A DNA stretch of 64,000 nt from positions 1,980-65,979 of the forward strand of contig JBAXVQ010000003.1 in NCBI GenBank assembly GCA_037128935.1, given 5' to 3'. Positions within the stretch are counted from its first letter, which is position 1; every line of letters starts with the position of its first letter. Origin of the DNA: a bacterium. Lineage in GTDB: Bacteria > Patescibacteriota > CG2-30-54-11 > JBAXVQ01. Both the position numbers and the translations under genes were made by a program. This document shows, piece by piece, positions 12,353-60,918 of the stretch. Below the pieces are notes generated by a model. The model saw only the letters and a program-made list of their open reading frames with translations, was not told the origin of the DNA and ran no database searches.

Positions 12353-12392
12353 GTTTTAGCTCGCTCTGCGAGTTTTTTCGCTTGATCAAAGC

Positions 12393-16380: not shown

Positions 16381-16863
16381 ATGAATAACCTTTCACAGGA
16401 AACAACCATGAGTCCACTTACAACAAAGACAGCTCCCATCGCCATTACCGTTAGTCGTTTTAACAGCATCTACACTCAGGGTCTCCTTGATGGAGCCCTC
16501 AAAATACTGGCAGAAGCAGGAATTGCTTCAGACACCGTTCCAATCCTCTGGGTTCCAGGTGCCTTTGAACTTCCACTCACAGCGCTTTCACTCGCCGAAA
16601 CCGGCAGATTTGAAGCCGTAATATGCCTCGGTGCCGTGGTGAAAGGTGACACGCCCCATTTCGATTTTGTAGCCGCCGAAGCCGCTAGAGGTATTTCTCA
16701 GGTTGGGCTGCAGACCAGCCTCCCGATCATTTTCGGTGTCATCACAACAAACACCAAGGAGCAAGCGCTCGAGCGTTCTGTCGCCGGACCAGAAAATCGT
16801 GGTGGTGAAGCCGCCAAAGCCGCTTTGGAAATGATAAAGGTATTGAAAGATATCAAACGGTAG
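16381..16863 (+). CDS. ribH: 6,7-dimethyl-8-ribityllumazine synthase
   Basis: 160 aa. VPGAFELP, GAVVKGDTPHFDFV and FGVITT motifs. Confidence 0.9.
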   Translation: MNNLSQETTMSPLTTKTAPIAITVSRFNSIYTQGLLDGALKILAEAGIASDTVPILWVPGAFELPLTALSLAETGRFEAVICLGAVVKGDTPHFDFVAAEAARGISQVGLQTSLPIIFGVITTNTKEQALERSVAGPENRGGEAAKAALEMIKVLKDIKR

Positions 16864-19753: not shown

Positions 19754-19997
19754 ACCCCTACTCTATAGCATTTAAAAAAGAGAAACAAACAAGTAAGTTG
19801 GTAGGGAAAAATGTAGAAAATTTAAAATTATTTATTGATTATAATAACAAAATATTCTAATATATGTTCCATCAAAACATTACAAAATATACAAATTTAA
19901 AATAATAATCATGCTAAAATGTTTATTAGATTTGATCATTTAAAAGCAATTTACAAAGATTTTGAAAAAAAATCATAACAAGATTTGTGGAGTTGTG

Positions 19998-21200
19998 ATG
20001 ACGTATACAACTAAAGAACAACTATCCGAAAGTTCTAGATTTGGAGCTCAAAGAGTCACTCTTCAGACAGCTGAGTACCCTAACAAGCAGCATACCTACA
20101 TTGGGATATTTGATTCAGGTAGTGGAGGCATGGTGGCGGCCTCGTGGGCAGTTCGGGTCTTGCATGAACAGGGATTGGATTTTGGCGTCATTTTCTTCGG
20201 TGATACCAAGAACCTTCCCTATGGTCCCAAAGGGGTTGAGACCGTTGCTGGCCTTGCAGATGATATTATTGCTACGCTTTCACGCTACTGCCCAGTTATC
20301 GGAATTGCCTGCAACACTGCCAGCATTAGCTGGAAAAAAGCCGGAAAGCAAGGAAAAGAAGAAGGAAAAGCCCCTCAGGTTATTGGCATCATAGAAGCCG
20401 GAGCGAAGCAGGCATATGAAAAGGCAATTGCCCAAACCAGCGAACAATACCCTGAAAGACGCTGCAAACGTATCGGGATTATTGGCACAGAACTTACAGT
20501 CAATGTTCAAGCTCACGCTGAAAAAATTCTTCTTCTGCATCGAGATGCACTCAGTGAAGCTATCGGGCATCAACTCCCCATTATCCCCTATGAAAAAATT
20601 GCGAATGCATTAAAACCATCACTCGCTTCAACGGTTATCAACTACAATCGCACACCTCATATTGCCTTGATTCGTGAACATGAAGATGCCCACCACGGTG
20701 GAGCAACCAGGGGGCATCTTTTTCACTATGACCCACCACCCAATCTTCCGCACGATGTTGAAATAATAAGCCGTGACGGTCAAAAATTAGTAACCTTCGT
20801 AGATGAAGACCATATCCTCACAGAGTACGGCAGTATCAAAAAGGAGTGGAAAGTGCCAGTGAAAGAGTATCTTAACCAGATTTCAGAAGACTTGCGGAAG
20901 AACAAGATCACGTCACTTGTGCTAGGGTGCACTCATTTCGAATACTTCTCGAATGAATTTGGAAAAATTTTTCCTACCATGGAAGCCCGACAAGGCATCA
21001 TTGCTCCGTCAGCTGTGTTAGCATTAGACTTAATTACTACCATGCAAAAGGGTGTACATGAATCCCCAAAAGCCGAACAGAACCCCAATAGCAACAAAGC
21101 TCCTGCCAAAGCCTATTTTTACTTTTCCGGCGATCAACCCACTCGTGACACTTTCGAAACATTGGAAATACCTTCAGCAACACTTGTGCAAGATTTGTAA
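19998..21200 (+). CDS. Glutamate racemase-like Asp/Glu racemase with large insertions
   Basis: IGIFDSGSGGM, GDTKNLPYG, IACNTAS and LGCTHFEYF motifs in MurI order, but about 400 aa instead of about 270. Start placed at ATG 19998 (GTGGAG upstream). Confidence 0.6.
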   Translation: MTYTTKEQLSESSRFGAQRVTLQTAEYPNKQHTYIGIFDSGSGGMVAASWAVRVLHEQGLDFGVIFFGDTKNLPYGPKGVETVAGLADDIIATLSRYCPVIGIACNTASISWKKAGKQGKEEGKAPQVIGIIEAGAKQAYEKAIAQTSEQYPERRCKRIGIIGTELTVNVQAHAEKILLLHRDALSEAIGHQLPIIPYEKIANALKPSLASTVINYNRTPHIALIREHEDAHHGGATRGHLFHYDPPPNLPHDVEIISRDGQKLVTFVDEDHILTEYGSIKKEWKVPVKEYLNQISEDLRKNKITSLVLGCTHFEYFSNEFGKIFPTMEARQGIIAPSAVLALDLITTMQKGVHESPKAEQNPNSNKAPAKAYFYFSGDQPTRDTFETLEIPSATLVQDL

Positions 21201-30582: not shown

Positions 30583-31815
30583 ATGGTTCCGCACCCTACG
30601 CCGCTCATGTTGAGCTTGCTTCACTCTTTTTATGCTGATAATGGTCCTGTAGAACGGGTGTATGCGCGTCTTGGGATCTCATTCAACTTTCAAGATTTTT
30701 TTGTTGTGCAACAGGGCGAACTCTTTATCGATAGGAAGAAAGAGCTCGCCTCATTTTTCCCCCTCACCTCAGTTTCATTGAGAAAAGCAGGAGCAAAGAC
30801 CTTTCTAAAGCACCTTTGGATAACCCTCAATAACGGAGTGCGATTAACATTTTTCTTCAAAACGAGACCACTCGATGAGCTTACTTATGAACTACTAACC
30901 GCCGTAACAAAATCTGCTGATGGAGAAGATTTTTCAGGTTGCTTACGCCAATTTTTATTACTCTACGAAACGATCATTGAAGTAAACATTCAAACGGATA
31001 GGATTGTAAAAAAATCATTGGCATTGCTCGGGAAAGATGCATTATCGCACATCGGCAAACCGATACTTCCTTCACTACCTAATCTGGAGAGCCTTGGTAT
31101 GCACACCTGGTTGGGAAATGGCATTGATATTGCTGATGAGCATCCATTTGTGCACAGCAACTCCGCAGAGGTACCTGTTGCAAAAGAAAATGAGAAACCA
31201 TGTACAATGCCACATCACAAAGCTGCAATTACTGCTGCGCAGCGAGCCTTGGGAGTTCGAGAGTTTGGGCGTTGGGTTACTGTCCGCTGGGTTACTATTT
31301 TGCGTGGAAAGCTTTTTGCTATTGCAGATAGATTGCAGTTATCTTCACCGCAGCTACTGTATTTTGCCACGCTTGAAGAAATACTAGCTGAACGAGTACA
31401 TGAGGAAGTTTGTAAAGAAAGAAAAGTTACATATGAACAACATTTCCAATCTCGAAAGAGCCAATCACCGTCTGCATCCAGCACCAAAGAAAAAATATCA
31501 TTAAAAAATGTTTCTCCAGGAAATGCTAGAGGAGTACTTTGTTCTCTTGATCAGTTGGAGAAATTTTCAAAACAACGAGACTGTATCCTGTGCACAGATC
31601 AGTTAACACCTGATTTAGTCACCGTATTTCCTCTTATAAAAGGAATTTTATCTCTACATGGTGGTATTTTATCTCATGTAGCCATTGTTGCCCGTGAGGT
31701 TGGTATCCCTGTTATTTGTGGGGTTACACCTTCTCAATTGGGTCTTACTCTGGGAGATGAGGTGGTGTTGGATAGCAGTAAAACAAACAGCATTATTACC
31801 AAAGGAAGGGAATGA
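30583..31815 (+). CDS. PEP-utilizing-enzyme homolog with C-terminal swivel phosphohistidine domain, lacking the ATP-grasp domain
   Basis: C-terminal GGILSHVAIVAREVGIPVICGV is the PEP-utilizer mobile-domain His motif. The N-terminus starts at the PTPLMLSLL segment that follows the ATP-grasp domain in PpsA/rifampin-phosphotransferase-like proteins. Confidence 0.6.
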   Translation: MVPHPTPLMLSLLHSFYADNGPVERVYARLGISFNFQDFFVVQQGELFIDRKKELASFFPLTSVSLRKAGAKTFLKHLWITLNNGVRLTFFFKTRPLDELTYELLTAVTKSADGEDFSGCLRQFLLLYETIIEVNIQTDRIVKKSLALLGKDALSHIGKPILPSLPNLESLGMHTWLGNGIDIADEHPFVHSNSAEVPVAKENEKPCTMPHHKAAITAAQRALGVREFGRWVTVRWVTILRGKLFAIADRLQLSSPQLLYFATLEEILAERVHEEVCKERKVTYEQHFQSRKSQSPSASSTKEKISLKNVSPGNARGVLCSLDQLEKFSKQRDCILCTDQLTPDLVTVFPLIKGILSLHGGILSHVAIVAREVGIPVICGVTPSQLGLTLGDEVVLDSSKTNSIITKGRE

Positions 31816-33959: not shown

Positions 33960-34022
33960 CAGTAGGAGCTTTGATACGTTCACACAATGTTGCTTACACC
34001 CAACTCACGCTACACTATACCC

Positions 34023-35693
34023 ATGAACCACCCAAGCAAAAACTTCAATTCTTTTGTGACCAAATGCAAACAATGGATCACTTCCCCCCTCGCAAACAAC
34101 CACCTCCGTTTGCTCTCTTTGTTCGTTTTTCTTACATCTCTAGTAATCGGCTTTGGTACGAGAATTGTCGCTGTTTTTCAGGATACAGAATCGTTTGGAG
34201 ATGTGGCGAGAGACTTGTACGTCTACCAAGGAATGTGGAAAGGAACTTTTCCACTACTCGGGCCAGAATCTTCTTTTGGGCTCTTTCACTTGCCACCCTT
34301 GTATTACTATCTTGTTTGGCCGTTCACCATCTTTAGCCCAAATCCTATCTGGCCGGCTCTAGTCAGCGCCGCATTATCATTTCTCTCTATTCCTCTGTTC
34401 GCCTTTCTCGTCTACAAACTCTTGCAAGGAACGCAGAAAGAATACAGATTTTTCTTATCAGCCCTAGCAGGGCTCTGGTGGAGTTGCCTATTTCCCGATG
34501 TTCTACTTGCCAACCGAGCATGGAACCCGTCACCCAGCAGTTTCTTTCTCTTTGCCTTTATTCTTACCTGGAACTGGCTCTGGGAAAGCATCCCAAATTA
34601 CACCAACCCTGTTAAAAACACAGCGCAGCCGAGCCCAAAAAAGCAATTACTTTTCACAAGAAGTACCTTGCTTTGGGCACTTTACGGTTTTCTTTTTAGC
34701 TTGCTAACAAGCATGCACTCCAGTCTTTGGTTTCTTCTCCCACTCTTATTTATCGGAACACTGCTGCTATTTTCCTACGCAAAAAGAAACTATATTGGCC
34801 CAGTGATTTCACTTCTTGTCTCCACTCTTTTTGCGCTCCCTTATCTTGTTGGGGAAAGCAACTCATCCTGGGGAAACACAAAGAAGTTAGTTGAGGTGCT
34901 TACTACCCAATCAACAAAAAGCACATTATTCAGCGTTATAGATCGGCTCTTTTTCACCTTGTTTGAGAACAGCAAACTCGCCTATTTTTTTATACCAAAC
35001 CTCTTTGTATTTGCTTGTTTTTTTGTAACGGTAGTAGCCCTTCTCAGCCTTCTTTCTTTCAAGGGAAATAAAACAATCTACTACAGTTTTATTTGGCTCT
35101 ACGGATTGTTTTTGCTCATAGCAGCAAATTTTCAAGGACCACTGTATATTCACTATTTACTCCCGATATGTTCGTTACCTGTAACTGCTTCACTCACAGC
35201 ATTGGCCTATTTTCCTTTTAACAGGAACGTTTTGACAAAGTTACTAGCAGGTTTTATTATCTTTTCTCTTCTGCTTTCTTTCTATGCAAATATGCATAAT
35301 CTCAAAGCGTATCTTTCGGCAAAATATGGGCCAGTGCGGTTGGTAAACACGCAGGATATCATCGATGCAATCAAAGAAATTCCAACTAGATCGATAGTGT
35401 GTGTAGATCCACGATACCTAGAGAGTTATCACTATATTGACGAGTTTATAACAAAAAATAAGATTGTCTGGCATCGTTACGGTGATTGTCAGCAAAGTCA
35501 GATATATTTGTTAAGGAACTATGCTCTTGATATCAAGAGCATTGATATTCCTCACGATCCAAGACAGCAAAGCACTTTTTACTACAACTACATCCATACA
35601 GGCCCCGTAAAACAGACAATGTCAGAAAGCGGCTGGGTGTTCTGGAAAGAGGTGGGGAATCATCAGGTGTTTAAGGCTGTTGGACAGGGTTGA
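34023..35693 (+). CDS. Polytopic membrane glycosyltransferase, GT39/ArnT-like
   Basis: At least 12 TM helices. The N-terminal DLYVYQGMW...LLGPESSFGLFHLPPLYYYL block resembles the first-loop motif of ArnT/PMT-family enzymes. Start at ATG 34023. Confidence 0.5.
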   Translation: MNHPSKNFNSFVTKCKQWITSPLANNHLRLLSLFVFLTSLVIGFGTRIVAVFQDTESFGDVARDLYVYQGMWKGTFPLLGPESSFGLFHLPPLYYYLVWPFTIFSPNPIWPALVSAALSFLSIPLFAFLVYKLLQGTQKEYRFFLSALAGLWWSCLFPDVLLANRAWNPSPSSFFLFAFILTWNWLWESIPNYTNPVKNTAQPSPKKQLLFTRSTLLWALYGFLFSLLTSMHSSLWFLLPLLFIGTLLLFSYAKRNYIGPVISLLVSTLFALPYLVGESNSSWGNTKKLVEVLTTQSTKSTLFSVIDRLFFTLFENSKLAYFFIPNLFVFACFFVTVVALLSLLSFKGNKTIYYSFIWLYGLFLLIAANFQGPLYIHYLLPICSLPVTASLTALAYFPFNRNVLTKLLAGFIIFSLLLSFYANMHNLKAYLSAKYGPVRLVNTQDIIDAIKEIPTRSIVCVDPRYLESYHYIDEFITKNKIVWHRYGDCQQSQIYLLRNYALDIKSIDIPHDPRQQSTFYYNYIHTGPVKQTMSESGWVFWKEVGNHQVFKAVGQG

Positions 35694-40152: not shown

Positions 40153-40204
40153 AAGCTTAATGAGCAAGTTCTGAACACTATTTCAGCATTTCCTCATTAA
40201 GCTT
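40153..40204 (+). promoter_or_regulatory. Stem-loop in the pnp 5' leader
   Basis: Perfect 12-bp inverted repeat AAGCTTAATGAG (40153-40164) / CTCATTAAGCTT (40193-40204) enclosing the inner hairpin CTGAA/TTCAG, 90 nt upstream of the pnp ATG. Confidence 0.55.
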
Positions 40205-48458: not shown

Positions 48459-50216
48459 TTATTCCACAACTAAAACCAGTGTTTCCTGAAGTGATGTCGT
48501 TGGATCACCAGTAAGTAATAAGTACGATTCTTTTGCATTGGTCAGGGCTTCTCTGATAACAGAATCAACCATATCATAGCCAAAATGAATACCTGTATCT
48601 AATTCAAGACCTTTAGATAGGGAAGATTTCTGAAATTCTTTCCCTTTGAGATGCGCAAGCGCAAGCACGGAAGGTGTTTTCGCAATCAGCGAAGTTAACT
48701 GCTCGTTCGAAGCCAAGTTTGTAGCCTTTTTCTTCTGGAGATACGACTCCATCCCACTCTGCGAAGAAAACCAAACAAACGTTGCATCAATAATTCCCCA
48801 CGATGGTGACCAATCCAACTCACCTTCTCCAGTTGCAGCCTTCGCAGTAATCAAAGGGACAGCACTTTCCTCATCGCTAAACTCATTAAGATTCCAAGCG
48901 TAGTGGTCTTTAGTTACCGTGTAAGAATATCCCTCAGTAGTGGCTTGGAAAAGCTGGTAGGCAATGGTATTTATTTTTCCCTTATGTGGAGGTTTCAGAA
49001 AGTGATCAAAATCCACACCTTGTGCCATCACATCCTCAATTTTTTTTACAGCAAGTTGCGCTGTAGTCACACTTGAAATTTTACTCACAAAACCAAATGA
49101 ATTTGCAGCTGTCACCAAAACAGTTTCTTTTCCACCTAAAAGCTGAAAATCTTCTGGTGAAAGGTGTAGAGTTTGCTTGGTATTAAACACAAACTGGTCA
49201 CGTGGTTGGGCAAACGGTAAGGAAATTGGTTGAAGAGAGTTAGAAAGCATGGCGTTGATTGCTGGTAGTAGGTAAGTGCCCGTCAAGGCTTCATCTGGAA
49301 GTGCTGCAAGAAGCGAAGGAGAAAAGGACTCTCCACTTCCAGCAAGTTGCAGATTTTTGCTTTGCAAGTGTTGCTTGTTTCCCTGAATAGCATAGGAAAG
49401 CGTAATGACATTGTTTTTTGCAGTTAAAGAGCCAGAAATATGGTCAACCAGTGTTTCTTCATCGCTCTGGTTTGGCGAACGAAAGTAAAATCGTCCAGCA
49501 CTTGAACTGTCGCCTTTTAACAGATCCGGAGCAATAGACGGGCTTTGACCATCAACCGTTGCAATAATTTTCTGCATTGGATTATTATTTTCTCCAAGTG
49601 TCAGCACGAGGAAATTTTGTACCAAAGCAATATTAATCTGGAGTGGTTTTTGGTCAGCTAGAGCTTCTGCTGCAAGATCCCCTTCTACTCCGGTTGGCAT
49701 ATTATCATTTACTTCGATTTGTGTAACGGTATAGCTGCCAATAGTTTTTTCCGTAAACTTTGCCCCAATATTTGCCAGAAAGCGCTCAAGAAATCTTCTT
49801 GTCCGAGGGATATTAGTTGTTTCCAAAAGTAGTGCAGTTTCGGTCGGATCACCCTGTAGATCAAGAACGGTTACACCCACATCTTTCCCAATCCAAGGCA
49901 GAACATCTTTCTGAATATCAATAATATTATTTCTCTGTTGAAGAAAACCACCAGCCAAGGATGAGATCATTGAATATGTCGGAAGCGTTTCTAACAGCTT
50001 TTGAAAACTACCCAGATCAAGATTTCGCAAATCGGCAGCAACAACGAGAGCACTGTCTTGAGGAATTACTTCAACTATCGATTTATTGCGAATATTCAAG
50101 TGGGTCAGTGGAAACGCCCCCAACACGGGCAAATCTTCAAACAACATCCACAACCCACCCACTGCGAGCAGAACAAACAGAACAGAAACAGAAATTGTGA
50201 TAGAGAGGCGTTTCAT
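48459..50216 (-). CDS. Hypothetical membrane-anchored extracytoplasmic protein (possibly DUF3352-like)
   Basis: 585 aa with an N-terminal TM anchor. The start overlaps the pheA stop by 4 nt. The family call is from memory only. Confidence 0.35.
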   Translation of the reverse strand: MKRLSITISVSVLFVLLAVGGLWMLFEDLPVLGAFPLTHLNIRNKSIVEVIPQDSALVVAADLRNLDLGSFQKLLETLPTYSMISSLAGGFLQQRNNIIDIQKDVLPWIGKDVGVTVLDLQGDPTETALLLETTNIPRTRRFLERFLANIGAKFTEKTIGSYTVTQIEVNDNMPTGVEGDLAAEALADQKPLQINIALVQNFLVLTLGENNNPMQKIIATVDGQSPSIAPDLLKGDSSSAGRFYFRSPNQSDEETLVDHISGSLTAKNNVITLSYAIQGNKQHLQSKNLQLAGSGESFSPSLLAALPDEALTGTYLLPAINAMLSNSLQPISLPFAQPRDQFVFNTKQTLHLSPEDFQLLGGKETVLVTAANSFGFVSKISSVTTAQLAVKKIEDVMAQGVDFDHFLKPPHKGKINTIAYQLFQATTEGYSYTVTKDHYAWNLNEFSDEESAVPLITAKAATGEGELDWSPSWGIIDATFVWFSSQSGMESYLQKKKATNLASNEQLTSLIAKTPSVLALAHLKGKEFQKSSLSKGLELDTGIHFGYDMVDSVIREALTNAKESYLLLTGDPTTSLQETLVLVVE

Positions 50217-51034
50217 TGCAGTGCTTCCGGGTAAGACCCTAATAATTTAACCGAGTTATGTTTTTTAATGCTGTTCAAAGCTTGCTGCACTGATTCATGC
50301 AGTTGATGACCTTCAATATCAATAAAGAAATGATACTGTCCCAGTTTTCCTTTTGTTGGCCTCGACATGATTGAGGTCATATTAATTTTGCGATCAGCAA
50401 AGGCTGAAAGAATATCTCTCAACGATCCCGGCTTGTCTTGAACGCCTATCAATAACGAGGTTTTATAAAAAACTGCAGGTTGCAACTCAGGAACGGCTTT
50501 GTTTGCCACAACAATAAATCGGGTTTTGTTATTTGGGAAGTCCTGAATACTTTCCTTCAACACCTTGAGTCCAAAAGTTTCCGCTGCATGAATAGGAATG
50601 ATTGCCGCAGAGTCTGGATCAGCTGACGCCTTTTCCGCAGAAATAATATTGCTTTCAGTATTGATGATAAGCAAGACAGCAAGGTCTTCCAAGAAATTTT
50701 TACATTGTTGATGCGTAGAGAATTGCACGTACACTTTTTTTATTTTGGAAAGTGCTACGTGTTTACTGGCTAGGCAATGATTTACTGGAATAATCAGTTC
50801 ATCAATCACAACAGCTTTGTGAAGTTCAAGAAAATCCAATGTTGGTCCAATAAACCCATCGATCAGGTTTTCCACCGGAGCTACAGAGATCGTTTCGTTA
50901 TTAACGGCCAACAGCGATTTTGTGATAGAAGAAAAGTAGAGTTTGCTCAGCTGTTTCTGTGTACGCTGCAAATACAAGTCAGCTGCCATGTCAGTAAACG
51001 TTCCAGCTGGACCAAGTACGGAAAGATATCGCAT
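50213..51034 (-). CDS. pheA: Prephenate dehydratase (PDT + ACT domains, no chorismate mutase domain)
   Basis: 273 aa. NKTRFIV (TRF motif) and the ACT-region SRPTKGKLGQYHFFIDIEGH. Confidence 0.85.
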   Translation of the reverse strand: MRYLSVLGPAGTFTDMAADLYLQRTQKQLSKLYFSSITKSLLAVNNETISVAPVENLIDGFIGPTLDFLELHKAVVIDELIIPVNHCLASKHVALSKIKKVYVQFSTHQQCKNFLEDLAVLLIINTESNIISAEKASADPDSAAIIPIHAAETFGLKVLKESIQDFPNNKTRFIVVANKAVPELQPAVFYKTSLLIGVQDKPGSLRDILSAFADRKINMTSIMSRPTKGKLGQYHFFIDIEGHQLHESVQQALNSIKKHNSVKLLGSYPEALQ

Positions 51035-51087
51035 AAGAAGTGATTCTCGTAGAATGGTTCTATTATACCTTGAAAAACAGTCGAAAG

Positions 51088-51981
51088 TTATTCCTCGAGA
51101 AGTGAATACATTGCATTAGTTTTTTCAACGATGTCATCATCAGTTTTAACAGCCTTCTGAATCGATTCAAGGTTCTTTTTCAATTTCTTTTCTTCACCCT
51201 GAACTATAAACTCTTTCAATGTTTCAGCATCTTCAAGAAAGTGGGAAAGCACTTCCGGCACCTGCGGATTATATAGCTGAATCTCGGCATATAAAGCCGG
51301 ATCAAAAGAAACCACTCTATCAAGAAGGCTTTTTACAAGTGTGTAAAACGTTGTTTTTTTATCCTCATACTCTGCAAATTTCCATTTCCGCTCGCTCAAT
51401 GTTTTTCCCAATGCCAGAAAGAGGAAATGCGCCAAACCCTGCATCACAGCCATCATGTGATCATGTTCCTTTGCCGTCATGATGGAAACCTTGGCTTTAT
51501 CGTCTTCAAACATCGCCACCACTTCCTGCAGCTTTTCCCGTGCAATACGTTCGGGAACGAGGATCACATTCTTGTTTTCCAACGTTAGCGTTGGAGAAAA
51601 CAACGGATGCATCCCGAGAATTTCCACCTCTTCCGATACTGAGTTAAGCATCGCTTCTACAGGCCGTTGTTTAACCGAAGTAACGTCGGTTATCAATTGT
51701 CCAGCTCGAAGCAGAGGACCGACCTTCTGAATGCACACCTCCGTTAGCGCTATCGGAACGGAAAACATAATAACATCAGCTGACTGCACAGCTTGGAGAG
51801 CTTCTTTAGAAAGTTTTTTCGTCCCATCGCCCTGGAAATAAGAAAAACGCTTGTTCTGCATCAACTCTTTTGCTGGTTGAGAGCGACTGATACCAATAAC
51901 ATTTTTCCCATGGCGCAGAAAAAACTCCGCCATAAAGCGACCAAATTGACCGGAAACGCCGAAGATGAGCCATGTTTGCAT
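51088..51981 (-). CDS. tyrA: Prephenate/arogenate dehydrogenase (no chorismate mutase domain)
   Basis: 297 aa. N-terminal Rossmann GVSGQFG, catalytic-region GMHPLF, HDHMMAVMQGLAHF. Confidence 0.75.
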   Translation of the reverse strand: MQTWLIFGVSGQFGRFMAEFFLRHGKNVIGISRSQPAKELMQNKRFSYFQGDGTKKLSKEALQAVQSADVIMFSVPIALTEVCIQKVGPLLRAGQLITDVTSVKQRPVEAMLNSVSEEVEILGMHPLFSPTLTLENKNVILVPERIAREKLQEVVAMFEDDKAKVSIMTAKEHDHMMAVMQGLAHFLFLALGKTLSERKWKFAEYEDKKTTFYTLVKSLLDRVVSFDPALYAEIQLYNPQVPEVLSHFLEDAETLKEFIVQGEEKKLKKNLESIQKAVKTDDDIVEKTNAMYSLLEE

Positions 51982-51996
51982 AAGGTATTTTTTCAG

Positions 51997-53298
51997 TTAA
52001 ATAGGTGACTGCCAGACAAAAGTCTTTGCAATTTCAAGTGCTTGGGCACTACAAAGAGCTTTTTTGTCTTCAGGTACATCCTCGAGGTTGAGAATTAGCG
52101 TTGGCGATGAAGCCAAGTGACTGTTAAAGAAAATTGGGTAATATAGCTCACTTGTTAGTTGGTTGTTTGTAAAACGTCTTTCCAGTTGAATTTCCGATCC
52201 GGTAGTAGTTTGAACAGGTTCGAGAAGAGGCTCTGATACACTCACGGTTCTTTGTAGCTGGTAGTTAAGAGAGCATTCAGGAATTTCTTTGAGACGCAAG
52301 TATTGGTAATAAGATTGAGGATCTGTGTTACCACTATCCACCATTTTCCACGTATATGTAGCAAAAGTGAAAGAGTAAGAAAGAGGAGGATCACCGTGAA
52401 TTTGCTGAACAGTTCGCATCTTATCGACTGGCGCATGAATATCAAATCCAACCCAGATGTGGGCTGCACCAATAGGATCAGCTGTTTCAGGAACAGACTC
52501 CATCCAGTACTTTCCCGCTGCTAAGGTAATATCTTCTCGAAATTTACCTACTGGAGCACCGTACGGTATTGTAAAAGGGATAGTAAATGTTGCAAGCTCT
52601 CCTAGAGAACCAGAAAGCACAGAAAGTTGATCAAATGTTCCAACTTTTGTTCCATGCCAAGACTTGTAAGCAAACTCACTGGTACCAAAAGATTGATTTT
52701 GGGGGTCATCTTTTCCTGACCAAGAGCTTTTTACATTTGGATCTTTATATATAGCAATATAAACATCAGAATTTTCGCCAAATCCGGCCATCCATTCTCT
52801 GATTCCTCGGTTTCTAAATTGAATTTTCACTAAAATAGTGTCTCCAGGAAATACATCAAAATATTGATCTTCTGTTGCTGCCTGAGTTTGAGTGATCCAT
52901 TGTGCTTTGAAATCCCTTGCCCAAAAGTTTTTCAGTGATTTATTGTTGTTAGGCATAACTGGAATATGAGTGGGGAGGGGAGTTCCTGAAGAAACAGGGC
53001 TTGGAGTATACGTAGGAGTTTTTATGTAAGGCGTATAGGATCTAACTGCAGTGTTTGAGGGAACAGCGATAGGAGTTTTTGTGAACGGAGTATGAGAAAT
53101 AACTGGAGTATTTGAGGGGGTAGCGGTGGCAGTGTGTTGCGACCATTCTAGAGGCAGCACTCGTGGTCGCTTATCTTGCAAAGTAACGGCTGGAGGATCT
53201 ATGGGGTAAGTCTTTGCTTGTGTCGAAGTAGTAGACTTCACTTTTATAAAAGAAAAACTTAATAACAACACAACCGCAACTAAGGCTAATTCACCCAT
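51997..53298 (-). CDS. Hypothetical membrane-anchored surface protein with Pro/Thr-rich repeats
   Basis: Start placed at ATG 53298 (MGELALVAVVLLLSF...). TM anchor, two 19-aa repeats, then a ~330 aa globular region. Confidence 0.5.
   Translation of the reverse strand: MGELALVAVVLLLSFSFIKVKSTTSTQAKTYPIDPPAVTLQDKRPRVLPLEWSQHTATATPSNTPVISHTPFTKTPIAVPSNTAVRSYTPYIKTPTYTPSPVSSGTPLPTHIPVMPNNNKSLKNFWARDFKAQWITQTQAATEDQYFDVFPGDTILVKIQFRNRGIREWMAGFGENSDVYIAIYKDPNVKSSWSGKDDPQNQSFGTSEFAYKSWHGTKVGTFDQLSVLSGSLGELATFTIPFTIPYGAPVGKFREDITLAAGKYWMESVPETADPIGAAHIWVGFDIHAPVDKMRTVQQIHGDPPLSYSFTFATYTWKMVDSGNTDPQSYYQYLRLKEIPECSLNYQLQRTVSVSEPLLEPVQTTTGSEIQLERRFTNNQLTSELYYPIFFNSHLASSPTLILNLEDVPEDKKALCSAQALEIAKTFVWQSPI
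53014..53127. repeat. Two tandem 57-nt coding repeats
   Basis: AGGAGTTTTTATGTAAGGCGTATAGGATCTAACTGCAGTGTTTGAGGGAACAGCGAT versus AGGAGTTTTTGTGAACGGAGTATGAGAAATAACTGGAGTATTTGAGGGGGTAGCGGT. They encode PSNT.V.S.TP..KTP units. Confidence 0.75.
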
Positions 53299-53989
53299 TG
53301 ATTTCTCCTTTTCCAAACGGATTCGTGAAAAGATGTTGTCGTCTATAATGACGCCACTCAATCCAATCCACATACGTACTGTAGTTTACCGGTTTTTTTA
53401 TAGCTTGTGAACGAAGAGCCTGAGTTTTCTTTTCATCACAGTAAGGCGTTATGAGGGCAAGATCGTCGTTGTGCCGTATAGACTGGTAGAAAGATGCATT
53501 ATGGGAAAGCCACTCAACCGATACAAGTGGAAGTAAGATCTTTCCAATCTCGATACTATTCCCGTGAAACACCTCTTTTGGATGAGGATTGAGGTATCGA
53601 TTAGTATACACATAATCAATGCCATCATCTTCAGCAATTACTTCAAAGATGCCAAATTCAACATCGTAATCTCGGTCATATAGCGCGTAGTGATGATTTT
53701 CTACCGGAGAATGGTTATCGGTTGTTTGTAATCCTAGATAAGCACTATCAATAAAACGATAGTGCTTTTGCGCCAGCAAAGTTGGAATGATACGTTCGAT
53801 TCCATCAGAAGAAATGAGGACATCGATATCGCCGTGGTTACGAAAACAGCTCTCAGGATTTTGCTTAGTTTTCGATGAGATATACAGTCTAAGTGCGACA
53901 CCTCCAGTAAAGAAATATAATTCAGGAATCAATACATTAACCAACGCTGAAAAGCGGGAAATAGCCGGGAAAATTGATTTCTTTTCCAT
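53291..53989 (-). CDS. Nucleotidyltransferase-fold protein (ANT(2'')/Lnu-like family)
   Basis: GGVALRLY ... HGDIDVLI matches the GG.A...(x)n...DIDxxx pol-beta NTase signature. Start placed at ATG 53989 (MEKKSIF). Confidence 0.45.
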   Translation of the reverse strand: MEKKSIFPAISRFSALVNVLIPELYFFTGGVALRLYISSKTKQNPESCFRNHGDIDVLISSDGIERIIPTLLAQKHYRFIDSAYLGLQTTDNHSPVENHHYALYDRDYDVEFGIFEVIAEDDGIDYVYTNRYLNPHPKEVFHGNSIEIGKILLPLVSVEWLSHNASFYQSIRHNDDLALITPYCDEKKTQALRSQAIKKPVNYSTYVDWIEWRHYRRQHLFTNPFGKGEING

Positions 53990-54097
53990 ATAAATACACT
54001 CACCCCGTCTTAGCAATTTTACTGTGCTAGTGTACTATAGAGTAAGTTAATTTGCCCTTAGGCTGCAAACAATTTGTGGAGTAGCAGGATATTCACC

Positions 54098-56083
54098 ATG
54101 ACCTACCTTAACCTCGAACAGAAATCTTACACCTTCACCCAAAAAAAACTCGCCATCAACCTGCCGATTTACGAAGTCTTTAAAAGGATTTACTCCCGAT
54201 TCGACACCGTCTATTTTCTCGAATCACTTGGCGAACTTGAGGATTTTTCTCGCTATTCCATCATTGGCTTTTCTCCCCGCAACCACCTTTCCGCCAAAGG
54301 GCAAACATTGACCGTCGATGGCAACGATCACCAACTTGAAAACCCTTTTTACGCCCTCAGGGAAATTAACCAGGTGAAAATTCCACAGGCTTCCTTTTGC
54401 GGTGGGCTGGTAGGGTATCTGTCCTACGAAGGCACTCGCTATTTTGAACCGTCAGTTGATTTCAAAAACAACTCCGCCTTTCCCGACTTCGAGTTTGGAC
54501 TCTACTTAGACGGCATTATGTACGACAAAAAAACCAAAGACTTTTACTACTTCTACCTCGACACCGACCGCAGCGAAGACGTCCTCAACGCCGTCGCAAA
54601 GCCCGTAGAATTGCAACCGTTCAATTTTCAGGATCTCGGACCGAACACTACACGGGAAGAATACAACCGGATGATTGACCAATGTATCGAGCACATCAAG
54701 GCGGGAGATATTTTTCAGGTGATCATGTCCGTGCAGTTTCGCTACGAGCTATCTGGCAGCCCACTGTTCCTCTACGAAAATCTGAGGAAAGTAAACCCGT
54801 CACCGCACATGTATTTTCTCAAGTTTGGTCGTCGTCAACTCATTGGTGCCAGTCCTGAACTGGTTGTTCGTTATCAAGTAGATCACACCGGCATGATCGG
54901 CAATCGTATTGAAAACTACCCACTAGCAGGCACCACCGAACGGGGAAAAACGCCAATTGAAGATGAACAATTGGCTGCAGAAATGTTGAAAGATAAAAAG
55001 GAACGCGCCGAACACATGATGCTTGTCGACATGGGAAGAAATGATATCGGACGAGTCAGCAAATTTGGCAGCGTCGAAGTCCCCAAATTAATGGTGGTCA
55101 AAAAATACAGCCACGTCCAACACATCGCATCCGAAATCGAAGGCGAAGTCCGTGACGACAAAGATGCATTCGATTGTCTGGCAGCCACTGCCCCCATGGG
55201 AACAGGATCAGGAGCACCAAAAGTCGAAGCCATGAAGATCATCAACAACCTTGAAAAAGACCCCCGAGGACCCTACTCCGGCGAGATCGGGTACTTTTCA
55301 TTCAACGGTGACTGCATGTTCTGCATCGGTTTTCGGTCGATTTTTGTTGATGGAAACCAGGCGTATTCCGCTAGCGGAAGCGGAGTTGTCTTTGACTCTA
55401 CCGCCGATTATGAATATCGGGAAATTCTTCGCAAGGGTGCAGGTATGAAGATAACTATTGAACAAACCCAGCAACTGAGCAAAAAGAAATTGAAGAAAGA
55501 ATACACGCTCGAAGAGCTCCGTGAAAACCTCGATGAAAGCGGCGAAAAAATTCTCTATGTCCTCGCAGACATCCAAAGAGAAAAAGCACTTGCCCATCCC
55601 GAGCGATTGGTAATCCCTCAATCAACCGATGTTGAAAAGAAACAATGGCTCCAACTCGTACTCAAACGCATTGGGAGTGGAATTGATAACACTGAGGCGC
55701 AGGAATTTTTCTCCACCATCTCTTTGGATGGAAAAGAACTGCAGGATATACTTGTTGGAAAGTATTTCGACAACACCGGTATTATTGCCGGCGATCCCAA
55801 ACTCAACGATCGAGGAATAACACTCTTGCAGTCATTTCTCGACACTGACCGCCACGACCTACTAGAACCCCTACAAGAACGCTGCTTCTGGATTCAACAC
55901 GTCTCCCGCTACAAAAAAGAACGGGGCATAGAAATCCGAAAGATAGAACGGGAAAAACAACTCATCGCCAAGATGGAAAAACGTAGCATAGAGCTCGGTA
56001 TAGATCCCGAGATGACAAGGTTACTCTATATCTACGTTGTATTGCCGATGGCGTTTTTGATTGAAGAGGTGATGATTGGGTGA
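54098..56083 (+). CDS. trpE: Anthranilate-synthase-component-I-like chorismate-utilizing enzyme fused to a C-terminal ~210 aa chorismate-mutase-like extension
   Basis: FLES...SRYS allosteric-type block, NYPLAGT, GAPKVEAM, GPYSGEIGY. The tail LLEPLQERCFWIQHVSRYKKERGIEIRKIEREKQLIAKMEKRSIELGIDPEMTRLLYIYVV resembles AroQ helices. It could alternatively be PabB-like. Confidence 0.7.
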   Translation: MTYLNLEQKSYTFTQKKLAINLPIYEVFKRIYSRFDTVYFLESLGELEDFSRYSIIGFSPRNHLSAKGQTLTVDGNDHQLENPFYALREINQVKIPQASFCGGLVGYLSYEGTRYFEPSVDFKNNSAFPDFEFGLYLDGIMYDKKTKDFYYFYLDTDRSEDVLNAVAKPVELQPFNFQDLGPNTTREEYNRMIDQCIEHIKAGDIFQVIMSVQFRYELSGSPLFLYENLRKVNPSPHMYFLKFGRRQLIGASPELVVRYQVDHTGMIGNRIENYPLAGTTERGKTPIEDEQLAAEMLKDKKERAEHMMLVDMGRNDIGRVSKFGSVEVPKLMVVKKYSHVQHIASEIEGEVRDDKDAFDCLAATAPMGTGSGAPKVEAMKIINNLEKDPRGPYSGEIGYFSFNGDCMFCIGFRSIFVDGNQAYSASGSGVVFDSTADYEYREILRKGAGMKITIEQTQQLSKKKLKKEYTLEELRENLDESGEKILYVLADIQREKALAHPERLVIPQSTDVEKKQWLQLVLKRIGSGIDNTEAQEFFSTISLDGKELQDILVGKYFDNTGIIAGDPKLNDRGITLLQSFLDTDRHDLLEPLQERCFWIQHVSRYKKERGIEIRKIEREKQLIAKMEKRSIELGIDPEMTRLLYIYVVLPMAFLIEEVMIG

Positions 56084-56134: not shown

Positions 56135-56596
56135 TTAGTGAGAAAAGAGCATTGCCATTACTAGTTGAAAAAATACGGCAAGTAAAACTATGTAAGCTAC
56201 TGTTGATATTAAAGAGATGACAGAGAGTCCAATAATTTTCCATAGAGATTGCTTTGTTGCTCCATTCTGTAAGTATTCCTGAATTGCTTCTTTTTGAAAT
56301 TTTTCAGCAATAGTAGTGATTAATGCAGCGTAGAGAACAGGAAAAACAGGAGTTGGAATTTTATTAACAATAGTTGCAGGGGTAAAGGCAAGTGCACCTA
56401 GAATAAGTAAGGTAGCAATAGTACCCCAAATGAGAGTCCTACTAGCATAGTCTTTTTTACCAAGATGAGTAAAATTTTTACTGGTCATATAAAGACCAAC
56501 AAAAGGACCTCCAAGAAAAGAAGCAATAAAAATTGATTTTATTGTATAAAACTGTTTATCCGTGCCATTTTTTTGTACAGTAGTTGTCGTTTCCAT
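56135..56596 (-). CDS. Hypothetical membrane protein
   Basis: 153 aa, 4 TM helices, AT-rich. Confidence 0.4.
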   Translation of the reverse strand: METTTTVQKNGTDKQFYTIKSIFIASFLGGPFVGLYMTSKNFTHLGKKDYASRTLIWGTIATLLILGALAFTPATIVNKIPTPVFPVLYAALITTIAEKFQKEAIQEYLQNGATKQSLWKIIGLSVISLISTVAYIVLLAVFFQLVMAMLFSH

Positions 56597-56696
56597 GATT
56601 GCAATTGATCTCCAAACTAAGTAAATAATTCTAGGAATGATTATTATAAAAAAAAAGATAATTTGTCAAAAGTAATTCATGTTATTACTTTTAGCT

Positions 56697-56905
56697 GGAG
56701 GCATCTTGCAGATGCCTCCTTTTCTTTCGTAGAGCTGAATGGCTGGTGTTGCAGGAACTAGATTGCAGCTGAAGTATTCAGCTCATTGGTGCTGTTCTCA
56801 CAAAAAAGCTTCAAGAATACTGCCCTACGAAAGAGGAGGAGCCATCTGCAAGATGGCTCCAGCGGTAGCGTTTGTTTTTTGTAGAGACATGGCATGCCTT
56901 GTCTC
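56697..56905. repeat. Cluster of three hairpins downstream of the truncated polA, including two mirrored hairpin + T-tract modules
   Basis: GGAGGCATCT-TGC-AGATGCCTCC + TTTTCTTTCGTAG (56697-56732, + sense). Its relative GGAGCCATCT-GCA-AGATGGCTCC is preceded by CTACGAAAGAGGA (56825-56860, - sense). GAGACA..TGTCTC at 56884-56905. Confidence 0.7.
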
Positions 56906-56942
56906 AGGGAGGTGTGGGCGTTTACCTGTTTGCAAAAAAGTC

Positions 56943-58472
56943 TCACACCCCCTCCTCAATCCTCTCCCCCAGCACTCCCACCAACCTCCACGTCATATCC
57001 GCATCTGCACACGAGTAATCACTCGCCTGCTCCAGCGGCACTTCTGCAAAGGTAACCTGCTGTTTCCCTTTCCCAATCAAATCCTCAATCGCTGTCATAG
57101 AAACACCAAACTCGGTCAACGCCATATTTTTCAACCCCACTCGTGACCCAGGGTTGAGCACGTACGCCGCCAACATGGTGTCGAAAGAAATTGGCGAAAC
57201 CTTTATGCCGTAGCGAAGAAGAACGCTGCAATCAAACTTCATATTGTGACCATATTTCTTCACCTGCTGAGATTCAAATGCAGATTTCAACTTCGGAAGC
57301 CATTGTTCGTGAACCGTTTCAATCGCTTTCCCAGGGATAGTAAAGGCAACGTAGTACGCCTCCTTTTCCTTCCATGAAAAGGAAATACCCAGCAGTTCAC
57401 CATCGAGCACGTTCAGACTATCCAATTCGGTATCAAAAGCAAACGCCTTTTGTTTGTTTAGCTCATCAAGAAAGGTTGCAAACGCCTCGTCAGTAGCAAC
57501 AAGGTGGTACTGCACATCCGCAGGCTTTTCCACGGTTCCCATGCTTTGTTGCATCGTTGTTGGTTTTTTACTCGCGGCCTCTTCCTGTTCAGTGCCAAAA
57601 GATGGTATTTTTCTGATCAGACTAGTAAACTCCAGCTCGCGAAACAACTCAATCACCTGCTGACGGTCAAATTGCTCAGAATATTTACACGCTTGCAAAT
57701 CAAAATCAATCGGAACATCGCAGTTAATAGTGACAAGTCTTTTGCTAAGCAATGCATTTTGGTGGTTATCCTCAAGAATCTGTCGGATACGCTTGGAAAC
57801 TTCCAGCACCTGCAAATTTTCATAAATTGATTCCAAACTTCCAAACTCTTTCACCAGCTGCATCGCCGTCTTTTCCCCAATCCCAGGAACCCCTGGGATG
57901 TTGTCCGAAGGATCGCCACGCAACGCTTTGTAATCGATAATATGTTCCGGACCAAAACCAAATCGTGCGTACACACTGGCGACATCATAGATGACTGTTT
58001 CTGTCAGACCACGCTTGGACGTGTAGATCTTTGTATGATCATTTACCAACTGCAACGTATCCAAGTCACCAGTCACAATGAACACTGCCAAATCAGGGTT
58101 TTCCCGATCTAGTTTTTTCGCAATCGTCCCAATAAGATCGTCCGCCTCATAGCCAGGTTTAAACAGAACAGGAATGTTGAACGCTTTTACCAAGCGATGC
58201 GTATCTTCAAACTGTGCCAACAGCAGCGCATCGGTTTTTGGGCGTTGTGCCTTGTATGCCGGAAATTCTTTATGGCGAAAAGTTGGTTCTTTGGTATCGA
58301 AAGTGACTATGACGTATTCAGGATGTAGATCCTGAAGCACTTTCAAAAAAATCGTAGTAAACCCATACACCGCATTCGTTGGTTTACCATAGGATGTGGA
58401 AAGGTTAGGAATCGCATGAAAGCCACGGTGAATCAGCGCATTTCCATCAACTATTACAACATGTTCAGGCAT
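56943..58472 (-). CDS. polA: DNA polymerase I N-terminal portion: 5'-3' flap nuclease + 3'-5' exonuclease domains only, no polymerase domain
   Basis: 5'-nuclease motifs (VDGNALIHRGFH, GDPSDNIPGVPGIGEKTA). Exo I FAFDTE, Exo II HNMKFD, Exo III YSCADAD. Stop follows 15 aa after Exo III. Start at ATG 58472 (AAGGAA upstream). Confidence 0.85.
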   Translation of the reverse strand: MPEHVVIVDGNALIHRGFHAIPNLSTSYGKPTNAVYGFTTIFLKVLQDLHPEYVIVTFDTKEPTFRHKEFPAYKAQRPKTDALLLAQFEDTHRLVKAFNIPVLFKPGYEADDLIGTIAKKLDRENPDLAVFIVTGDLDTLQLVNDHTKIYTSKRGLTETVIYDVASVYARFGFGPEHIIDYKALRGDPSDNIPGVPGIGEKTAMQLVKEFGSLESIYENLQVLEVSKRIRQILEDNHQNALLSKRLVTINCDVPIDFDLQACKYSEQFDRQQVIELFRELEFTSLIRKIPSFGTEQEEAASKKPTTMQQSMGTVEKPADVQYHLVATDEAFATFLDELNKQKAFAFDTELDSLNVLDGELLGISFSWKEKEAYYVAFTIPGKAIETVHEQWLPKLKSAFESQQVKKYGHNMKFDCSVLLRYGIKVSPISFDTMLAAYVLNPGSRVGLKNMALTEFGVSMTAIEDLIGKGKQQVTFAEVPLEQASDYSCADADMTWRLVGVLGERIEEGV

Positions 58473-58497
58473 AATGAAATTCCTTATATTGCTCAAA

Positions 58498-58630
58498 GTC
58501 CCCCTGAGAAGGGGGATTTAGGGGGTTCAACACCCTCGCTGTCCTGTTTTGTTCAGATGCATTCGTCATCTCCCCGCAGGAAAGAGAGGGGATTGAACCC
58601 CTCCTAACCTCCCCTTCTCAGGGGAGGGAC
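58498..58630. repeat. G/C-rich nested palindromic element, family 2, copy b
   Basis: GTCCCCCTGAGAAGGGGGATTTAGGGGGTTCAA ... TTGAACCCCTCCTAACCTCCCCTTCTCAGGGGAGGGAC, 26 nt upstream of the polA start. Confidence 0.75.
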
Positions 58631-58666
58631 AAGAAGAACACGTTCAAAGTTCTCCATCCTCAATAA

Positions 58667-59062
58667 TTATCTCGGCCCACGAAAATCCACCGGAGCCGCA
58701 GTCGGGGCTTCAGTGGGTATGCCAACAATCGACTGAGTATTTGCTATCGTTTTGTTTGCAAGCTCTTTGGGCGCCAGTGCCAACCACAAGGAAAGCGCCA
58801 GAAGCATGTATAGTGCCACGATAAACACGCGCAACAACGGGTCATGCTTTGGCAATCTCAACCGCATCCAAATATCATCCATGTCGAACAGAAAAATCAA
58901 CGAAGTAAGAAATAAAGTAACCGTAACACCCGCAAAAATAAGCGACTGTAAAAGCAGGTAAACAACAAGCAGGAGGATCACTCCGTAAAAGAAAGAAGCA
59001 AAAAACTGATTCCACACTGTTCCGGTGCGAAAGCCGGGTACTTTTTTGATGGTGTTTTTCAT
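58667..59062 (-). CDS. Hypothetical membrane protein
   Basis: 131 aa, 3 TM helices. Confidence 0.4.
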   Translation of the reverse strand: MKNTIKKVPGFRTGTVWNQFFASFFYGVILLLVVYLLLQSLIFAGVTVTLFLTSLIFLFDMDDIWMRLRLPKHDPLLRVFIVALYMLLALSLWLALAPKELANKTIANTQSIVGIPTEAPTAAPVDFRGPR

Positions 59063-59068
59063 AAGTTG

Positions 59069-59944
59069 TTATACCTTTAAATGAGCCCGGGTGGCTATGT
59101 AGCTACTAAGTGCTCCAAGAAACGCCCCCCAAAGCAGTTGAAACGCAATAAATTTTACAAGCATTACCGGTGACAGATCAACAAGTGGTACCTTCAGTAT
59201 AATCGAAAGTTGCGCATTTGCAGCCTGAATCACCGCGAAAAAAATCAGCAAAGAAATCGTTGAAGCAATCACGCCAGCATAAGAAAGCTCAAGAATAAAC
59301 GGCCATCTGATAAACCAGTCAGTAGCACCCACCAACTTCATAATTTCGATTTCCTCTTTGCGAGTGAAGACTGCCAAACGCACTGTACTAAGGATTACCA
59401 TGAAAGAAATCAACACAAGAAAAGCGATCATTCCCAACCCAAGGTTACGAAGCACTGATGCCCAATAGAGAATTTTTTCCACCGCATCTTTATTAAACTT
59501 GATGCCATTTGACTCTATAGCCTGATTATCTCGGATGCTCTCTATAATTGTTGTCAACTTTACCGCTTCAAACGCCTTAATTTCAAAACTAGCTGGAAGT
59601 GGGTTATCCTCAGCGGTAACCTCAATTCCCGTTTTCCTTCCACGAAAAATCTCCAACGCCTTTTCCTTGGAAACGTACTCCGCCTGACGTACATCAGGAT
59701 TATCCTGCAAAATCTTCTGTAACTGGGCAACGCTCGCTGGACTTGCAGTGTCTTTAAGAAAAACGCTCACATCGGCCTTTTGCTCAATCGTGATAATAGC
59801 CTGATTAACATTGATCCACACCAGTGAAAATAGGGAAATACTCAAAGAAACCAACAACATAATACTGATCGCAGTGATATTCACCGAGCTGTTGCGGAGA
59901 AAATTGATGAAAGCAAATTTAAAAACGCGCAAAAAATTTGGCAT
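59069..59944 (-). CDS. ftsX: FtsX-like permease (cell-division ABC transporter permease)
   Basis: 291 aa. N-terminal TM, a ~100 aa extracytoplasmic domain, then 3 C-terminal TM helices with MKLVGATDWFIRWPF, typical of FtsX. No ftsE adjacent. Confidence 0.75.
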   Translation of the reverse strand: MPNFLRVFKFAFINFLRNSSVNITAISIMLLVSLSISLFSLVWINVNQAIITIEQKADVSVFLKDTASPASVAQLQKILQDNPDVRQAEYVSKEKALEIFRGRKTGIEVTAEDNPLPASFEIKAFEAVKLTTIIESIRDNQAIESNGIKFNKDAVEKILYWASVLRNLGLGMIAFLVLISFMVILSTVRLAVFTRKEEIEIMKLVGATDWFIRWPFILELSYAGVIASTISLLIFFAVIQAANAQLSIILKVPLVDLSPVMLVKFIAFQLLWGAFLGALSSYIATRAHLKV

Positions 59945-60742: not shown

Positions 60743-60918
60743 AGTAGTACTGAGAATAGCGAGAAGAATGATGGTGTGCAAGAGATAGTGAGTAAATGTT
60801 TCTGTAGTTGCCACAATCCGACGCAACTGCTGAACGTAGGGAGCAAAGAGCTTAGTTCCCTACGTTTAGCAGGCTAGAAAGTACTTAGTAAATGTCAGTG
60901 AAAATCGAATTCTCAACA

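Follow-up and report, generated by a model that had tools for sequence, protein, structure and literature searches.

A Pol I derivative of two nuclease domains that ends at the exonuclease/polymerase boundary

Why should a gene for DNA polymerase I (Pol I) stop just where the coding sequence for its polymerase ought to start? The question is raised by one gene in a 64,000-nucleotide (nt) stretch of bacterial DNA (hereafter the window: contig JBAXVQ010000003.1 of NCBI GenBank assembly GCA_037128935.1, forward-strand positions 1,980 to 65,979, with the coordinates below counted from its first letter). The product, here termed FEN-Exo, joins the 5' nuclease of Pol I (flap endonuclease, FEN) to its 3'-5' proofreading exonuclease (Exo) and goes no further. 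It is a real and conserved protein, complete in structure, with two nucleases, and it came from Pol I through loss of the polymerase domain, cut off at the domain boundary. The comparisons considered below show that the polymerase-coding part was lost once, in the common ancestor of a lineage, with what was left having since been under normal purifying selection.

Two nuclease domains and the end of the chain

The initial annotation, made from the letters alone, had reported an open reading frame (ORF) with an intact 5' nuclease and three exonuclease motifs, a stop 15 codons after the last of these motifs, and no polymerase domain in or beside the gene. Pfam and residue checks confirm the first of these claims, and the gene is laid out as follows.

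56943..58472, minus strand: coding sequence of the polymerase-less Pol I derivative (FEN plus DEDDy exonuclease), 509 amino acids (aa) from its ATG
57957..58460, minus strand: FEN N-terminal resolvase-like domain, residues 5-172 (Pfam PF02739, 5_3_exonuc_N, 3.4e-52)
57672..57950, minus strand: FEN H3TH/SAM-fold domain, residues 175-267 (Pfam PF01367, 1.6e-34)
57537..57578, minus strand: linker predicted to be disordered, joining one nuclease domain to the other, residues 299-312 (AlphaFold2 confidence, pLDDT, the predicted local distance difference test, below 50 in that segment only)
56958..57509, minus strand: DEDDy 3'-5' proofreading exonuclease domain, residues 322-505 (Pfam PF01612, DNA_pol_A_exo1, 2.9e-30)
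56943..56945, minus strand: TGA stop at the exonuclease/polymerase domain boundary (from alignment with complete Pol I and the junction sequence)

An alternative start, the TTG at 58496, would give a 517-aa version, and the protein is identical to NCBI MEI6221415.1, which carries the name ‘5'-3' exonuclease H3TH domain-containing protein [bacterium]’. The contig measures 66.5 kb, so that 2.5 kb of it fall beyond the window. All nine acidic residues of the FEN are intact (D9, D59, E109, D111, D112, D136 and D138 in the N-terminal domain, D187 and D190 in the H3TH domain). The exonuclease has its three motifs, FAFDTE, HNMKFD and YSCADAD, with catalytic residues D347/E349 (ExoI), N410/D414 (ExoII) and Y486/D490 (ExoIII), and its PF01612 score of 105.8 bits, set against a gathering threshold of 23.6, places it in the DEDDy superfamily.

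What should such a protein be called? Two of the components of Pol I, the FEN 5' nuclease and the DEDDy exonuclease, are there; the third, a C-terminal PF00476 polymerase domain with motifs A, B and C in the same chain, was sought with Pfam and is absent. The NCBIfam Pol I model, 889 positions long, aligned over positions 2-478 only, and the Pol I equivalogs (NF004397 and TIGR00593) gave 451 bits against a cutoff of 720 and 353.7 against 600. The solo-FEN equivalogs did no better, with 260.9 against 305 bits for NF011547 (PRK14976) and 142 against 261 bits for Xni (PRK09482). FEN-Exo is thus not Pol I, because it has no polymerase domain and scores below the cutoff, nor is it a solo FEN, because it has an additional domain and again scores below the cutoff. 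Failing the defining tests of both, it is most aptly described as a variant of the Pol I family with a new domain architecture.

The chain terminates 17 residues past the last Asp of YSCADAD, with the sequence ...LGERIEEGV, so that the early stop of the initial annotation stands and its count of 15 codons does not. Just past the corresponding point complete Pol I goes on with ‘L..LF.EIE.PL’, which opens the thumb/polymerase domain, and in the window a second in-frame stop lies 7 codons beyond the TGA. Two ways of rescuing a longer product were entertained and set aside. Reading UGA as sense, as in an alternative genetic code, adds only those 7 codons before a TAA, and for a split intein there is no room in a chain that finishes 17 residues past ExoIII.

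The annotation's third claim, that polymerase sequence is missing in and beside the gene, is borne out by each of the approaches used. With five polymerase domains as queries, tblastn against the 64-kb window and the loci of the two relatives introduced below (P0002 and P0003) found no family-A polymerase (best E=0.9-8). A hidden Markov model (HMM) built from 76 polymerase domains and run against all six-frame window ORFs of at least 50 aa had a best E of 1 and disclosed no polymerase remnant, and among about 55 window ORFs Pfam recognised no DNA polymerase, whatever the family. Nor was there a polymerase domain in 33 kb of the P0002 contig (12 kb reached via the MnmG orthologue) or in 10 kb of the P0003 contig. 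Three large window ORFs are without a Pfam match (33987-35693, plus strand, 568 aa; 51997-53373, minus strand, 458 aa; 19962-21200, plus strand, 412 aa), and in the HMM test they bear no resemblance to a family-A polymerase domain.

A stop shared by three lineages

The closest homologues, P0002 (503 aa, 51% identical) and P0003 (497 aa, 46%), come from different assemblies and stand out in the homologue search at 532 and 519 bits from a flat background of at most 475 bits. PF00476 was not found in either. P0002 is inside a 115-kb contig and P0003 inside a 10-kb contig, each of them assembled independently also in a JGI metagenome. In the ortholog comparison that the initial annotation had proposed for the stop position, with complete Pol I in the alignment, the window protein (P0001), P0002 and P0003 end no more than one to two alignment columns apart, immediately ahead of the thumb motif. 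Of the 120 best hits the other 117 all end elsewhere, at scattered points as expected of contig-end partials. Each relative has its own clean stop, in one case an ATGA overlapping the start of a helicase gene and in the other a TAA followed by 4 nt. Since the stop is shared at 46-51% identity, the truncation is older than the divergence of the three lineages; the MnmG proteins of two of the clade's contigs are only 62% identical to each other.

How rare is this arrangement? As a control, the 80 GTDB species representatives nearest among the matches listed were taken (Patescibacteria, Dehalococcoidia and other Chloroflexota, 38-48% identical), a listing that did not include the genomes of the clade itself, and in all 80 the polymerase domain is contiguous with the exonuclease. 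When 1.84 billion cluster representatives were searched exhaustively with HMMER, the cluster that P0002 represents was the one real case of truncation at the boundary among those listed. A metagenome scan with the clade-specific motif EPTFRH-x5-YKxQRP returned 84 loci, with L109, the P0003 contig, as the one clade member among them; the others were solo FENs or complete PolA. The forms covered in a 2026 survey of the DNA polymerases of bacteria are complete Pol I, polymerase groups that have no 5' nuclease, and solo 5' nucleases standing in where Pol I is missing; a FEN plus Exo protein lacking a polymerase is not described there (PMC12926913).

Some candidates for further cases did not survive a closer look. 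In P0145 the chain is cut short where its contig ends. P0189 (locus L087) and P0232 (locus L088) have an adjacent ORF with PF00476 and so have the look of natural splits; they are 1-nt frameshifts in A-runs of a continuous polA. In these unrelated polA genes the frameshift falls exactly at the Exo/Pol boundary (L087 5440-5500 and L088 3300-3360; ...KELKKK and a stop, then KKNDLSDLFHKIEMPL...), and L087 carries other broken genes as well. Homopolymer sequencing errors are the most likely cause, and the lysine-rich Exo/Pol linker may be a slippage-prone site.

All nine acidic FEN residues, and the D-E, N-D and Y-D pairs of the exonuclease, are kept in all three clade proteins. Within the clade the ratio of Exo to FEN identity is 0.90-1.04, as against 0.87 +/- 0.09 for 1444 pairs of complete Pol I of similar divergence, and the clade matches the consensus class at 88-93% of 60 conserved exonuclease columns (93 +/- 8% for 76 complete enzymes). 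To judge by these sequence comparisons the exonuclease domain evolves as slowly as it does in complete Pol I. The AlphaFold2 model (mean pLDDT 91.7) has two compact domains joined by the disordered linker, and a clean terminal helix. In Foldseek the FEN domain had M. smegmatis FenA, E. coli ExoIX and plastid exonuclease 1 as matches, with a root-mean-square deviation (rmsd) of 2.4-3.7 Å for solo FENs, and the second domain had the exonuclease domain of Klenow (32% identity and rmsd 2.4 Å, over 190 residues); the Pol I structures matched were PDB 6vde, 1tau and 1kfs.

Neighbours and palindromes

The surroundings of the gene are in part as conserved as its stop and in part peculiar to the window. 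The neighbours are these.

58667..59062, minus strand: membrane protein, 131 aa, no Pfam hit, directly upstream of the FEN-Exo gene in all three lineages (about 40% identity)
59069..59944, minus strand: FtsX permease, an upstream neighbour kept in all three lineages (53-55% identity)
56135..56596, minus strand: hydrophobic protein, 153 aa, no Pfam hit, the downstream gene, outside the conserved neighbourhood

In none of the 80 canonical relatives does polA have this FtsX context. Where the window has the 153-aa gene, the relatives have one for an AddA-like protein of 1025-1031 aa, a UvrD helicase with a C-terminal PD-(D/E)XK nuclease (L001 11509-14604 and L003 5119-8196). In both it is directly downstream of the FEN-Exo gene, with a 4-nt overlap or a 4-nt gap. 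An AddB-like partner was not found beside it, ACT and DUF711 genes coming next.

Could this be a mobile-element or phage-derived gene, or an anti-phage defence module in which FEN-Exo acts with a GajB-like UvrD helicase? The relatives' helicase neighbour matches GajB/UvrD-type PADLOC models, and in the window the gene is bracketed by inverted-repeat elements. Those GajB matches, however, reflect the generic UvrD fold, PADLOC assigns FEN-Exo itself to 0 families, and the flanking palindromes are mutually unrelated in sequence. Chromosomal synteny with ftsX is stable across deep divergence, and a scan of viral contigs yielded a single, distant and complete PolA. We regard a defence or mobile origin as very improbable.

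The palindromes themselves, and the signals near them, are the following.

56694..56863, no strand: imperfect palindrome, 170 nt, with 47-nt arms that are 85% complementary, each arm a 10-bp GC hairpin
56838..56860, minus strand: terminator-like hairpin, 10-bp stem with 6 GC pairs, tail UCCUCUUUCG, 83 nt past the stop
56640..56669, minus strand: promoter-like site TTGACA-18-AATAAT before the next gene, 11/12 matches (a consensus match only)
58496..58624, no strand: second long imperfect palindrome, with nested 25-nt arms, in the 5' spacer (58473-58666, fold z = -6.45)

The initial annotation had the gene followed by some 350 nt of hairpin-rich non-coding DNA and then a membrane protein, and that description holds. 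The 3' spacer is 346 nt long (56597-56942) and has a minimum free energy of -114 kcal/mol as against -70.9 +/- 4.7 for shuffled sequence (z = -9.2), a strength of folding due to the 170-nt palindrome, while the 153-aa protein beyond it reads as having about four transmembrane segments. By its match to consensus, the promoter-like site would set the FEN-Exo gene apart, at its 3' end, as a transcription unit of its own. The window has a single copy of the 170-nt palindrome, and the relatives have none; an Rfam search of the hairpin DNA gave chance-level hits only and recognised neither palindrome. Exact look-ups of FEN-Exo, of its 517-aa version and of a protein from the window's left end gave no record, and those of two proteins near the right end gave just a Logan contig from the same population (L085, 5 kb). 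This contig stops inside the 5' palindrome, at the start of the FEN-Exo gene, so that this palindrome may be an assembly breakpoint. Other spacers of the window have perfect intergenic inverted repeats, at 16235-16286 (24-nt arms and a 4-nt loop, between two riboflavin genes) and at 8529-8592 (21-nt arms, 22 nt apart), and further imperfect ones are at 40153-40204 and 60827-60872. Long palindromes seem habitual in the spacers of this genome, and the two beside the FEN-Exo gene are local peculiarities of it, outside the conserved feature.

It was natural to ask whether the gene is a normal polA spoiled by misassembly, a contig join, a frameshift, recent pseudogene decay or truncation by the hairpin DNA, and the annotation had included both an assembly error and the adjacent repeat-rich DNA among its options. 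The long palindromes on both sides, the Logan assembly that breaks in the upstream one, and the existence elsewhere of polA genes frameshifted at the same boundary are all points in favour. Against them, the same stop is conserved in four independent assemblies, which disposes of the assembly error, and it is found in the relatives (NCBI, ENA and JGI assemblies) without any such palindromes, which disposes of truncation by the repeats. Neither is there any polymerase remnant in any frame or any N in the window sequence, and both domains have normal conservation. That the short chain is an artefact or a product of decay is, of all the explanations entertained here, one to which next to no probability is given.

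Where might the polymerase be?

The lineage is small and rare, and affiliated with Chloroflexota and Patescibacteria, with its placement approximate. After the clade's own members, the closest matches of the window's MnmG are from Chloroflexota and Dehalococcoidia (55-56% identity), and the signatures PTFRH-x5-YKxQRP and CADAD are common to the FEN-Exo gene and Chloroflexi Pol I. Overall similarity and a neighbour-joining FEN tree put FEN-Exo among complete Pol I of the Patescibacteria type and outside the solo-FEN paralogues. The longer motif EPTFRH-x5-YKxQRP is also present in many solo FEN genes of about 290 aa (L090, L125, L133, L140, L143, L149, L151 and L165), and its leading Glu is missing in the complete Chloroflexi Pol I sampled; the clade nonetheless falls with complete Pol I in the FEN tree.

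How does FEN-Exo compare with what is known? With Pol I itself (that of E. coli, Taq, and M. smegmatis Pol1) it shares homologous FEN and DEDDy domains in the same order, the linker and the catalytic residues, and it is 40-50% identical to Pol I of Patescibacteria and Chloroflexota over the N-terminal half, but the polymerase domain, with thumb, palm and fingers (about 400 aa, PF00476, motifs A-C), is missing in its entirety. The solo FENs (E. coli ExoIX/Xni, B. subtilis FenA/YpcP and M. smegmatis FenA) are likewise PolA-related 5' nucleases with no polymerase attached. They are, however, of 250-320 aa and FEN only, whereas FEN-Exo adds an intact exonuclease and groups with complete Pol I. RNase D and the WRN exonuclease (PF01612) have the same fold and catalytic motif and no polymerase in cis, but are neither fused to a FEN nor recent derivatives of Pol I. 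In the cases of divided Pol I known to us the break is between FEN and Exo and proofreading stays with the polymerase. In FEN-Exo it is instead at the Exo/Pol junction, which leaves proofreading on the same chain as the FEN. What is alike is the distribution of functions over separate chains: divided Pol I lineages with a PolA1-like or Klenow-like polymerase and a solo FEN have the 5' nuclease in trans (PMC12926913), and the plant organellar POP polymerases and an organellar/plastid 5'-3' exonuclease (PDB 9l56) have Pol I functions in separate polypeptides.

The initial annotation had also offered a split Pol I and a repair nuclease derived from PolA, and both keep appreciable weight. In the first case Pol I would be naturally split in this lineage, with the family-A polymerase encoded on its own (or in Klenow-like form) by a gene elsewhere and the two chains forming a stable two-subunit enzyme. 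The cut is exactly at the domain boundary, and the separated Klenow domains reportedly fold and are active, as Freemont and colleagues are said to have found in 1986. The proofreading site and the conserved exonuclease columns are fully kept, and the host, which looks free-living, should need a polymerase to fill gaps. Yet none of the three lineages has a polymerase ORF next to the gene or within 10-33 kb of it, and in two of them the slot directly downstream is taken by the translationally coupled helicase gene. Both of the apparent adjacent splits, as recounted above, proved to be A-run frameshifts, and a dispersed polA split is not described in the bacterial polymerase surveys consulted. 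A split enzyme is, on balance, rather unlikely.

An option absent from those of the initial annotation is that a normal full-length polA is present as well and FEN-Exo is an extra nuclease, akin to ExoIX/Xni and FenA/YpcP with the exonuclease kept. Second, Pol I-independent FENs are common in bacteria (PMC12926913, PMC10191290), and the FtsX context, foreign to polA in the 80 relatives, would suit an accessory gene. The FEN domain nevertheless groups with complete Pol I and not with the solo-FEN paralogues, and an active proofreading site would not be expected to persist in a redundant paralogue. Among the 260 top hits the full-length proteins carry at most three of the ten clade signature motifs (the best, the contig-end partial P0145, has four), and no top hit has an accession from the same metagenome-assembled genome, the ‘[bacterium]’ PolA hits being MDP... 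as opposed to MEI622.... An accessory paralogue is, like a split enzyme, rather unlikely, though it keeps a substantial minority share of our belief. As a rough estimate of which family-A gene these genomes have, a second complete polA is put slightly ahead of a polymerase-only or Klenow-like gene, each at about a third.

The explanation to which we give most weight, in effect about half, is the ancestral removal of the polymerase domain to leave a free-standing two-nuclease enzyme for the processing of flaps and DNA ends, with synthesis supplied in trans. As can be envisaged from the sequences, the FEN domain would remove RNA primers and 5' flaps, the exonuclease would trim 3' ends or mismatched termini, and a separately encoded polymerase would carry out DNA synthesis. 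Two of the three lineages have the gene translationally coupled to the AddA-like one for a helicase-nuclease, which hints at the processing of ends in repair or recombination, besides Okazaki-fragment maturation. The polymerase of Pol I is dispensable for bacterial survival if the 5' nuclease is present, and about 4% of complete genomes are without a family-A polymerase (PMC12926913); by surveys and genetics alike the 5' nuclease is the indispensable part of Pol I (PMC12926913).

There are considerations that tell against ancestral removal with synthesis in trans. A split Pol I with an obligate partner explains the strict retention of the proofreading site at least as well. The AddA-like helicase-nuclease gene was not found in the 64-kb window, and the lineage is defined by three sequences only. 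Moreover, a free-living host makes the total absence of a gap-filling family-A polymerase less likely. That these genomes are without any family-A polymerase we consider improbable. Of comparably low standing, though far from negligible, is the bolder proposal that apparently free-living bacteria kept the Pol I exonuclease-FEN fusion under strong selection and discarded the family-A polymerase altogether.

The view of the host rests on the gene range of the window, which has enzymes for aromatic and branched-chain amino acids, purines, riboflavin and carotenoids. From this biosynthetic range it follows that the host is not a reduced symbiont, and by its gene content it looks free-living and metabolically complete. 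Several of these genes merit a word in their own right. A flavin mononucleotide (FMN) riboswitch (12207-12353, plus strand, 101.8 bits) precedes a riboflavin operon with genes to 16863, namely ribD (12503-13606), ribBA (13603-14796), riboflavin synthase (15566-16177) and lumazine synthase (16381-16863). The SAICAR synthase ORF on the opposite strand has a mechanically listed TTG start (12311) that overlaps the riboswitch and is probably too far upstream. At 54074-56083 (plus strand) a 669-aa protein has a chorismate-binding enzyme of the anthranilate/isochorismate-synthase type (Anth_synt_I_N and Chorismate_bind) fused to a C-terminal chorismate-mutase-type-II-like domain (residues 595-652). 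It may be a salicylate-synthase-like fusion, and its gene is head-to-tail with those for prephenate dehydratase and dehydrogenase (50213-51981). A 410-aa protein (30583-31815, plus strand) has a C-terminal phosphoenolpyruvate-utilising-enzyme mobile domain (residues 332-399) as its only recognisable part, the first 330 residues being without assignment.

What, then, does the FEN-Exo gene mean for the Pol I family? Its practical importance is limited because the lineage is rare, with three sequence clusters among 5.8 billion. Yet Pol I is the textbook three-activity enzyme, and a conserved arrangement in which Exo keeps company with FEN would be unexpected to specialists. If a polymerase half exists elsewhere, nature has done the experiment of splitting Pol I at the Exo/Pol boundary, with proofreading necessarily in trans. 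If there is none, the DEDDy domain serves primer removal or repair independently of a polymerase. Were the family-A polymerase indeed to have been discarded, the proofreading domain would have a job of its own, in a previously undescribed two-nuclease enzyme of replication or repair. Candidates for that job would be the trimming of 3' flaps or mismatches for Pol III in Okazaki-fragment maturation, or end resection with the AddA-like enzyme. Either way FEN-Exo is a compact and readily testable dual nuclease.

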